A DNA stretch of 39,253 bases. It comes from a virus. The notes beneath the pieces were generated by a model. That model had not been told where the DNA came from. It made no database searches and saw only the letters and a list, made by a program, of their open reading frames with translations. Location: the UHGV virus genome UHGV-1369056; one strand, 5' to 3'. A program made the position numbers and the translations under genes. How positions within the stretch are numbered: the first letter of the stretch is position 1; each line of letters starts with the position of its first letter. Of the stretch, positions 20,812-22,598 are shown in pieces.

Positions 20812-20812
20812 G

Positions 20813-20835
20813 ACTAAACTATCACTATAGGGAGA
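20813..20835 (+). promoter_or_regulatory. Phage RNAP promoter with GGGAGA initiation region, ACTAAACTATCACTATAGGGAGA
   Basis: Best consensus copy; +1 to +6 GGGAGA as in the strongest T7 promoters; upstream of the major capsid gene (as T7 phi10). Confidence 0.9.
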
Positions 20836-20937: not shown

Positions 20938-21981
20938 ATGGCAAACGTTCCGGGTCAGAAAATTGGTACAGACCAAGGTAAAGGCAAATCCAGTTCCGAC
21001 GCTCTGGCGTTGTTCCTGAAGGTATTTGCTGGTGAAGTCCTGACCGCATTCACTCGCCGCTCTGTAACTGCTGACAAGCATATTGTCCGTACCATTCAGA
21101 ACGGTAAGTCTGCTCAGTTCCCGGTCATGGGTCGCACCTCTGGTGTGTATCTGGCTCCGGGTGAGCGACTGTCCGATAAGCGTAAAGGTATCAAACATAC
21201 TGAGAAGGTGATTACCATTGATGGTCTGCTGACTGCCGATGTGATGATTTTCGACATTGAAGACGCGATGAACCACTACGACGTGGCTGGTGAGTATTCC
21301 AACCAGTTGGGTGAAGCTTTGGCTATCGCTGCTGATGGTGCGGTTCTGGCTGAAATGGCTACCCTGTGTAACCTCCCAGCTGCATCCAACGAGAACATCG
21401 CTGGTCTTGGAACTGCTTCCGTACTGCAAGTTGGTAAGAAAGCTGACCTCGACACCCCGGCTAAACTGGGCGAAGCAATCATCGGTCAACTGACCATTGC
21501 TCGTGCGAAGCTGACCTCCAACTACGTTCCTGCTGGCGACCGTTACTTCTACACCACACCGGACAACTACTCTGCAATCCTCGCGGCTCTGATGCCTAAC
21601 GCTGCTAACTATGCTGCGCTGATTGACCCAGAGACTGGTAACATCCGTAACGTGATGGGCTTCGTTGTTGTTGAAGTTCCGCATCTGGTACAGGGTGGTG
21701 CTGGTGAGACCCGTGGTGCCGATGGTATCACTATCGCTTCCGGTCAGAAACACGCATTCCCAGCGACTACTGCTGGCGACGTTAAAGTTGCTATTGACAA
21801 CGTTGTGGGCCTGTTCTCTCACCGTTCTGCTGTGGGTACTGTGAAACTGCGTGACTTGGCGCTGGAACGTGACCGTGATGTCGATGCTCAGGGTGACCTG
21901 ATTGTTGGTAAGTACGCTATGGGTCACGGTGGTCTGCGTCCTGAAGCGGCGGGCGCACTGGTTTTCAGCCCAGCGATGTAA
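20938..21981 (+). CDS. 10A: Major capsid protein 10A
   Basis: 347 aa; ALFLKVF.GEVLTAF, GKSAQFPV.GRT, HTEKVITIDGLLTADV, DIEDAMNHYDV, AAILAALMPNAANYAALIDPE, NVMGF.VVEVPHL, HRSAVGTVKLRDLALER, KYAMGHGGLRPEAAG are near-identical to T7 gp10A. Confidence 0.98.
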   Translation: MANVPGQKIGTDQGKGKSSSDALALFLKVFAGEVLTAFTRRSVTADKHIVRTIQNGKSAQFPVMGRTSGVYLAPGERLSDKRKGIKHTEKVITIDGLLTADVMIFDIEDAMNHYDVAGEYSNQLGEALAIAADGAVLAEMATLCNLPAASNENIAGLGTASVLQVGKKADLDTPAKLGEAIIGQLTIARAKLTSNYVPAGDRYFYTTPDNYSAILAALMPNAANYAALIDPETGNIRNVMGFVVVEVPHLVQGGAGETRGADGITIASGQKHAFPATTAGDVKVAIDNVVGLFSHRSAVGTVKLRDLALERDRDVDAQGDLIVGKYAMGHGGLRPEAAGALVFSPAM

Positions 21982-22112
21982 GCGCCTTTAGCCAACCTAA
22001 CGTCGCTACTGTAGCGGCTGTACCTGAAGAGGAGACTCTAACTCCTCAACAGAAAGCTGCGCGTACTCGTGCTGCGAACAGGGCCGCTAAACTGGCTGAG
22101 TCCAACAACTAA
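20938..22112 (+). CDS. 10B: Minor capsid protein 10B, produced by -1 ribosomal frameshift near 21960-21966 (G GTT TTC)
   Basis: Heptamer G GUU UUC lies in the 0 frame 15 nt before the 10A stop. The -1 frame is open to TAA 22110-22112 and encodes ...EETLTPQQKAARTRAANRAAKLAESNN, matching the T7 10B extension (EETLTP.Q.AARTRAAN). Confidence 0.65.
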
Positions 22113-22116
22113 TTGA

Positions 22117-22156
22117 AACCCCTTGGGTGCCTTCGGGTGCTTGAGGGGTTTTTTTT
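22117..22156 (+). terminator. T-phi-like late terminator
   Basis: aaCCCCTTGGGtgccttcgggtgcTTGAGGGGTTTTTTTT: GC-rich hairpin plus T-run, very similar to the T7 T-phi sequence (AACCCCTTGGGGCC...TCTTGAGGGGTTTTTTG) and in the same place after the capsid gene. Confidence 0.9.
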
Positions 22157-22166
22157 CGGAGGATTA

Positions 22167-22598
22167 ATGAAGGTATGTATAGGATGCCACACGGAGAAGG
22201 ACTTGGGGTCTTTCACGCCAAATGGCAGGACATGTAAGGGCACACAGAAATACAGAAGCAGATGCCGAGAGTGCGAGAACTCAAGGCAGGCTGCCATACG
22301 AGAGGAAGCTCCCAACAAATCACGATACTCAGCGGAAAGACTTAAAGGCTACCAACTTAAAAGCTCGTTCGGTATGACATATGACGAGTGGTTCTCCCTT
22401 ATGGAGTCTCGTGGTTGGGCCTGTGAGATTTGCTCGCGAACAGTAGAGACATCTGGTAGAACACTGGCTGTAGACCACAGTCACTCCACTGGTGAAATAC
22501 GAGGCGTGCTTTGTCAGAGGTGCAACTGTGCCATAGGACTCCTAAGTGAGAATCCAGAGCATATTGCAAACGCTATACGCTACCTTAAAGGAGATTAG
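22167..22598 (+). CDS. HNH endonuclease (endonuclease VII-like), probable homing endonuclease
   Basis: HNH motif AVDHSHSTGEIRGVLCQRCNCAIG plus N-terminal Cys cluster CIGCH...C...CREC. ATG 22167 with SD ggagga is preferred over 22113, which lies in the terminator. Codon usage atypical for this genome (aga, agg, ata). Confidence 0.8.
   Translation: MKVCIGCHTEKDLGSFTPNGRTCKGTQKYRSRCRECENSRQAAIREEAPNKSRYSAERLKGYQLKSSFGMTYDEWFSLMESRGWACEICSRTVETSGRTLAVDHSHSTGEIRGVLCQRCNCAIGLLSENPEHIANAIRYLKGD

Follow-up and report, generated by a model that had tools for sequence, protein, structure and literature searches.

The window analysed here, a stretch of 39,253 bp, represents the entire genome of a K1F-like podophage (Autographiviridae, Studiervirinae, Kayfunavirus). 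Known Kayfunaviruses are 93-94% identical to its first 25 kb over ~90% of the length, and the gene 10 region of the window shares 94-97% nucleotide identity with Kayfunavirus capsid genes. Gene 10A codes for a protein of 347 residues (36.3 kDa) that matches the Pfam Gp10A-like signature (PF21703, E 6e-105, residues 60-342) and is thus a major capsid protein of the T7 type. The gene ends with the codons GCA CTG GTT TTC AGC CCA GCG ATG TAA, with the stop codon at 21979-21981. Upstream of the gene lies a putative promoter, GACTAAACTATCACTATAGGGAG, which we assigned as the phi10 equivalent on the basis of its identity to the element annotated as 'promoter phi' in EcoDS1. The features of the locus are as follows:

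20812..20834, + strand: putative phage RNA polymerase promoter upstream of gene 10 (phi10 equivalent)
20938..21981, + strand: gene 10A, major capsid protein, zero-frame ORF
21945..21981, + strand: region open to a -1 shift into the tail frame, bounded by the nearest preceding -1-frame stop and by the 10A stop
21960..21966, + strand: slippery heptamer G GTT TTC in the X_XXY_YYZ register, with the P site on GUU (Val) and the A site on UUC (Phe)
21966..22112, + strand: 10B-specific -1 frame, 48 codons (QPSDV...AESNN) followed by TAA at 22110-22112
22115..22157, + strand: T-phi-like intrinsic / T7-RNAP terminator, hairpin and U-run, annotated at the homologous place in EcoDS1 and Penshu1

The terminator hairpin (22115-22152) comprises 17 bp, with a CCCC...GGGG core at 22119-22149 and a UUCG loop, and is followed by a T-run. 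The original prediction placed the end of the capsid extension immediately before this hairpin, and the 10B stop codon indeed lies 2-6 nt ahead of it (6 nt before the core stem).

Between the terminator and gene 11 we found an ORF of 143 codons (22167-22598, + strand) whose product has matches to Pfam Endonuclease_7 (E 1.6e-19) and to a His-Me finger domain, and which probably codes for a homing endonuclease. Its site corresponds to a gap in all 12 other close Kayfunavirus loci. Penshu1 harbours a deleted remnant of this ORF (45% coverage, 88% identity), and the next-best phage matches share at most 39% identity.

The slip site and the -1 frame

The heptamer is located four codons before the 10A stop, with its TTC codon starting 15 nt before the TAA. 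An in-frame G GTT TTC at this distance and a -1 frame remaining open for 48 further codons had both been proposed from the sequence; they can be read directly from the codons at 21960-21966 and from the translation down to TAA 22110-22112, and all the coordinates and counts given at that time are correct. The -1 frame translates as TGF QPSDVSAFSQPNVATVAAVPEEETLTPQQKAARTRAANRAAKLAESNN*, i.e. 48 codons past the Phe codon, in a region where numerous stops interrupt the zero and +1 frames. The complete 10B protein, join(20938..21966,21966..22112), is predicted to comprise 391 residues, with the junction ...GALVF|QPSDV... and a spanning peptide ...GALVFQPSDVSAF...; the geometry of this join matches that of the Penshu1 annotation. 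The computed masses of 10A and 10B are 36,263 and 40,895 Da, respectively, and the difference of 44 residues and 4,632 Da comes close to the anticipated increment of ~5 kDa.

GGTTTTC occurs once in the 39,253 bp, both strands considered, against 3.84 expected occurrences. As an X_XXY_YYZ motif it is imperfect, because in G_GUU_UUC the X_XX part is G_GU, which makes re-pairing in the P site imperfect as well. The heptamer is also partly dictated by the conserved Leu-Val-Phe residues and by preferred codons (in 10A, GTT accounts for 13 of the 29 Val codons and TTC for 9 of the 10 Phe codons), and the decisive evidence is therefore comparative. We discarded the length of the open -1 frame as a statistic in itself, as at least 49 open -1 codons are present near the end of 9 of the 34 long ORFs of this genome, usually because the next gene lies there in such a compact genome.

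The -1 ORF comprises 55 codons and opens at 21945, only 18 nt upstream of the Phe codon. It is devoid of ATG, GTG and TTG codons and has a single CTG, at 22092. Given this absence of start codons and the position of its opening, access to it requires a shift within the 12-codon interval 21945-21981, in which G GTT TTC is the sole shift-prone heptamer; no further X_XXY_YYZ or A_AAG motifs were found there. These observations bear on the idea that the tail is reached by another route, namely independent initiation of a short ORF, slippage during transcription of the T-run or a shift at a different site. Apart from the 55-codon length of the -1 ORF, nothing specific speaks for such a route; the lack of usual start codons, an ORF listing that is empty at this place and the lack of an alternative shift motif all argue against it, and the T-run of the slip site is only 4 nt long. 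Known transcriptional-slippage tracts are far longer. We consider these routes to be the least probable of all the explanations weighed here, so improbable as to be nearly negligible.

Related loci and selection on the tail

We compared the 10A/10B junction with those of 78 IMG/VR loci coding for relatives of the capsid protein and of T7, K1F, EcoDS1, CR44b, Penshu1 and other phages. A -1 extension of at least 46 residues was found in 35 of the 36 loci with [G/C]GTTTT[C/T] at the slip position. The heptamer is missing from 25 loci that retain Val-Phe, and 21 of these are devoid of an extension, their 10A stop running straight into the terminator; in these, Val is specified at this place by GTC, GTG or GTA, and GTT, which represents 31% of their Val codons, is not used there at all. 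The other four harbour a Big_2 extension behind an A_AAG motif. The association between heptamer and extension yields a Fisher p of 2e-11, a value that is descriptive only because the loci are phylogenetically related. The 15 loci with a T7-type tail all have an unchanged GGTTTTC. Conservation in close relatives, on which the initial proposal depended, is thus borne out, with the heptamer accompanying a -1 extension across ~80 related loci.

Existing annotations of these genomes are of the same tenor. 10B is annotated as a -1 frameshift join in Penshu1 and CR44b, although in the latter only 10A is flagged 'matches in mass spectrometry', which counts against 10B, and the EcoDS1 record states that the product 'may be translated via slippery sequence' and mentions a 'region of similarity to gp10B'. 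One locus departs from the pattern: in a vB_EcoP_F-like genome of 39,300 bp (L009, IMGVR_UViG_2974615076), a 1-nt deletion at about position 2540 of the locus converts the 10A stop from TAA to TAG and places an otherwise intact tail in the +1 frame, so that slipping by -1 would lengthen the protein by no more than 16 residues. Either the sequence is in error at this point or 10B was lost recently; in the latter case, 10B is dispensable.

The extensions found at this position are of several types, and the tail behaves as a module that can be exchanged in the segment separating the 10A stop from T-phi. Sister phages with capsids 94-97% identical carry a -1 extension of 92-97 residues (...DVTDWSLL...YSRRTNSLYFKA...) instead of the T7-type tail, behind G GTT TTC (L010, L012-L022, L068, L072, L073) or C GTT TTC (L024/L025); it has no Pfam match and corresponds to phrog_7473 of unknown function (E 2e-36). 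In two loci (L036 and L052; IMG/VR 3300034349_000001 and 3300034127_000003), G GTT TTT is followed by a -1 capsid extension of 476 residues, with an N-terminal Big_2 domain and then ~390 residues unmatched in Pfam, PHROGs and PDB sequences. This extension contains a GDS(L)-like 'FEGDSLT' motif, and these phages may display a large enzyme-like domain on their capsids through frameshifting. Ten loci devoid of G GTT TTC (L030, L038, L041, L047-L050, L053, L059, L063) have Big_2 Ig-like -1 extensions of ~90 residues (181 in L049); an A_AAG motif (GCA AAG G, ACA AAG G or GAA AAG G) found 1-3 codons past their Val-Phe codons looks like a T3-type alternative shift site. Lastly, three distant capsid homologues (L069, L070, L071; 60-65% identity) are coded by longer ORFs with an in-frame C-terminal extension that ends in basic, Ala-rich sequences (…ASTRRKAAE, …ATRNKRQA and …STHAKRSA, respectively). 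In these cases the tail may be fused in frame, making frameshifting unneeded.

The original prediction stressed the resemblance of the extension to the T7 10B tail. This holds for the C-terminal core, with 64% identity over 36 positions, one 7-residue gap and a pairwise BLASTP E value of 5e-11; it does not hold for the first ~20 residues, and the window tail is 8 residues shorter. The tail also matches PHROG tail families described as 'head protein' (phrog_12582, 'head protein', E 2e-10). We found 81 phage records carrying the window-type tail and 170 carrying the T7 version.

Between the window and T7, the core LTPQQKAARTRAANRAAKLA differs at 14 of 16.5 synonymous sites (pS 0.85) and at 8 of 43.5 non-synonymous sites (pN 0.18). 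Comparisons of the same core with two other loci (L008 and L037) gave pS values of 0.61-0.66 and pN values of 0.11-0.16, and both other frames contain stops over this segment. The tail core is thus under protein-level purifying selection in the -1 frame. At closer range, the tails of 12 close Kayfunaviruses have 12 segregating sites beyond the 10A stop, 7 of which are third positions of the -1 frame (p 0.07), a bias that supports -1 coding but is suggestive only.

This selection argues against the view that 21982-22112 is an untranslated 3' spacer or relic kept for RNA or terminator reasons, with an incidentally open -1 frame. Consistent with such a view, the RNA of positions 21960-22112 folds somewhat better than shuffled sequences (z -3.2), and the third-position diversity of the tail is lower than that of 10A (0.043 versus 0.114). 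We nevertheless rejected nucleotide conservation of the tail as evidence for an RNA element: in sliding windows its diversity is unexceptional, at 0.022-0.040 per 60 nt, within the gene 10 range of 0.003-0.092, and no special RNA-level conservation is therefore demonstrated. The spacer hypothesis is further at odds with the many relatives that lack a spacer and have T-phi right after the stop, as well as with the excess of synonymous over non-synonymous change between window and T7 in a segment whose other frames are stopped. We regard it as highly improbable.

Candidate stimulators and RNA structure

In a T7 helper plasmid, GGTTTTC alone yields less than 1% frameshifting (Slootweg et al. 2006, PMC1635266), which indicates that efficiency depends on stimulators. 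We found one candidate 3' element:

21972..22007, + strand: predicted 8-bp hairpin (AGCGAUGU / ACGUCGCU), candidate 3' stimulator, from MFE and consensus folds

The hairpin, with arms at 21972-21979 and 22000-22007, starts 5 nt past the heptamer and has a predicted energy of about -10.7 kcal/mol. The consensus fold of ten relatives retains the hairpin with one-sided, wobble-compatible changes, and one pair is broken in K1F; no compensatory changes were detected among these ten relatives, and the covariation term is -0.6 kcal/mol. Relative to shuffled sequences, its stability depends on the segment considered, with z scores of -1.8 to -2.3 for 41-44 nt and of +0.2 to +0.35 for windows of 64-74 nt, in which it does no better than the shuffled sequences. 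In two loci with T7-like ...KARKEAEL tails (L008 and L037), a strong extended hairpin is predicted 7 nt past G GTT TTC (about -19 to -24 kcal/mol in 60 nt), which is a far more canonical 3' stimulator than any seen in the window or in T7.

Several other candidates were examined and set aside. The alignment of relatives revealed no conserved SD-like element upstream of the site; the GGCGGG at 21948-21953 is present in the window only, and its relatives have GCTGGC or GCAGGC. An H-type pseudoknot pairing the loop UAGCC (21990-94) with GGCUG (22015-19) was rejected since in 2 of 10 relatives (P7124 and L005) the latter is GGCCG, which breaks the pairing. Downstream folding is not stronger in loci with the heptamer than in those without it (Mann-Whitney p 0.32), a test confounded by the terminator present at that place in heptamer-less loci. 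An Rfam scan of 21800-22250 returned only sub-threshold, terminator-like chance matches.

In T7, the shift needs 3' sequences extending as far as the terminator. The Atkins et al. 2016 review refers to an unexplained long-range need for the CCCC of the T7 terminator, which lies over 200 nt from the site on its 3' side (PMC5009743). The corresponding CCCC of the window (22119-22122) is conserved but would in any case be required for the terminator stem, and no conserved pairing partner for it was found near the slip site.

That no statistically supported stimulator emerged in the window is in keeping with slippage at a background level (<1%), in which case the tail would be a functionally negligible by-product rather than part of a programmed minor capsid protein. 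The low activity of the isolated heptamer in the T7 helper plasmid and the out-of-frame tail of L009 point the same way. Other observations are difficult to reconcile with this scenario. The tail has been maintained by purifying selection across genus-level divergence (pN/pS ~0.2 at near-saturated pS), and the heptamer is invariant in loci with a T7-type tail and avoided in tail-less ones. In addition, a g10b::GFP fusion labels K1F virions sufficiently for microscopy (PMC6277420). We thus hold background slippage to be quite unlikely, if less so than an untranslated spacer or another route to the tail.

Proposed mechanism and known systems

We consider it very probable that a -1 shift at 21960-21966 gives rise to 10B. 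Most ribosomes on the late gene 10 mRNA would stop at the TAA at 21979-21981 and release the 347-residue 10A. A minority, with tRNA-Val paired to GUU (P site) and tRNA-Phe to UUC (A site), would move back by a single nucleotide, whereupon tRNA-Phe would re-pair perfectly with UUU and tRNA-Val partly with GGU. Slipped ribosomes would then read CAG CCC AGC... for 48 codons up to the TAA at 22110-22112, yielding a minor capsid protein 10B of 391 residues, which would co-assemble with 10A and display its tail on the capsid surface. By analogy with the T7 and K1F experiments, we infer that slippage takes place in this phage and that 10B is present in its virions, at a level of the order of a few percent to 10%.

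The frameshift of T7 gene 10 is attributed to Condron, Atkins & Gesteland 1991 and Sipley et al. 1991 in later accounts (PMC1635266, PMC5009743), and a wild-type efficiency of ~10% is quoted in Slootweg et al. 2006 (PMC1635266). In the T7 motif, G_GU likewise stands as the X_XX part of the heptamer G_GU U_UUC (Atkins et al. 2016, PMC5009743). For K1F, a -1 frameshift in gene10 'adding 44 triplets' and generating a minor capsid protein has been described, and GFP fused to the end of gene10b gave stable fluorescent virions seen by microscopy (Moller-Olsen et al. 2018, PMC6277420); the 44 triplets are exactly the length added in the window. The gene10b locus of K1F has also served to display adhesins (2026 paper, PMC13370021). 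With an identical T7 heptamer, a homologous tail and a published K1F orthologue, the T7-type interpretation first put forward for this sequence is well founded, and in all likelihood the locus is the Kayfunavirus orthologue of the programmed -1 ribosomal frameshift of T7 gene 10A/10B. The frameshift at this orthologous locus is real and conserved, and it is already known for the genus, as follows from the published K1F work together with the Penshu1, CR44b and EcoDS1 annotations.

The gene 10 annotation should accordingly gain a second, joined CDS for the minor capsid protein 10B, join(20938..21966,21966..22112). Many Kayfunavirus records (H25-H40, H17; e.g. OM867676.1 and PQ133619.1) label the 347-residue product 'minor capsid protein (10B)' and lack a joined CDS; the label is an annotation error propagated by similarity. 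The 10B C-terminus represents a natural low-copy display site, already exploited in T7 and K1F. Regarding the biology, the window offers nothing new beyond the T7 paradigm, and the role of the tail and the stimulation of the shift are no more tractable here than in K1F or T7.

One speculative proposal relates to that role. The 20-residue tail core LTPxQxAARTRAANxAxKxA is under purifying selection across Teseptimavirus and Kayfunavirus, and sister phages have, at the same heptamer, Ig-like or other surface domains in place of the short basic tail. Taken together, these findings raise the idea that the tail, rather than being a dispensable appendage, could serve as a non-Ig module for surface interaction or defence evasion. 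The long-sought stimulator could then be the RNA coding for the tail, travelling with each tail module; the predicted fold of this RNA is a closed multi-branch domain with the slip site as its anchor (z -3.2). We deem this combined proposal rather unlikely.

Among known systems, E. coli dnaX (A_AAA_AAG, with an SD-like element and a stem-loop) similarly generates two products from one gene by tandem-slippage in the -1 direction. In canonical cassettes of the dnaX, IS or retroviral type, a perfect X_XXY_YYZ heptamer is followed by a stable hairpin or pseudoknot 5-9 nt downstream. The window differs from it by its imperfect heptamer, with G_GU in place of X_XX, and by the lack of a conserved upstream SD-like element; the stem-loop downstream of the dnaX site has as its counterpart a hairpin that is only predicted, without statistical support.

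Phages of the T3 / phiYeO3-12 type also use a -1 frameshift at the 3' end of the capsid gene to make a C-terminally extended minor capsid protein (PMC5009743). Unlike the window, the related loci with Big_2 extensions have no G GTT TTC but an A_AAG motif 1-3 codons downstream, and their extension is an Ig-like domain of ~90 residues instead of the short basic tail. The same review contrasts the Ig-like T3 extension with that of T7, which is non-Ig (PMC5009743).

T7 is closer. Its G GUU UUC has the same position relative to the conserved ...RPEAAGA(L/V)VF C-terminus and the shift has the same -1 direction; the T7 record, which annotates 10B as a joined CDS, has the site as gtG GTT TTC aaa. The tail core EETLTP.Q.AARTRAAN.A.K is homologous, and the tail ends just before T-phi, with the CCCC conserved. 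However, the T7 tail extends for 56 residues past Phe, compared with 48 in the window, and the N-terminal halves of the two tails are unrelated. T7 also has a GGGGG run 20 nt past the site that the window lacks, and its site-to-terminator distance is ~185 nt, compared with ~153 nt in the window.

The closest counterpart is K1F, the type species of Kayfunavirus, whose orthologous locus has the identical heptamer in the context CTG GTT TTC AGC, the same products of 347 and 391 residues and the same terminator. The tails of the two phages are 92-94% identical; the window has D5, A8 and V20 where K1F has G5, T8 and A20, and K1F has D41. The hairpin that follows the heptamer has one more intact pair in the window than in K1F, and the endonuclease VII-type gene inserted past the terminator of the window is absent from K1F.
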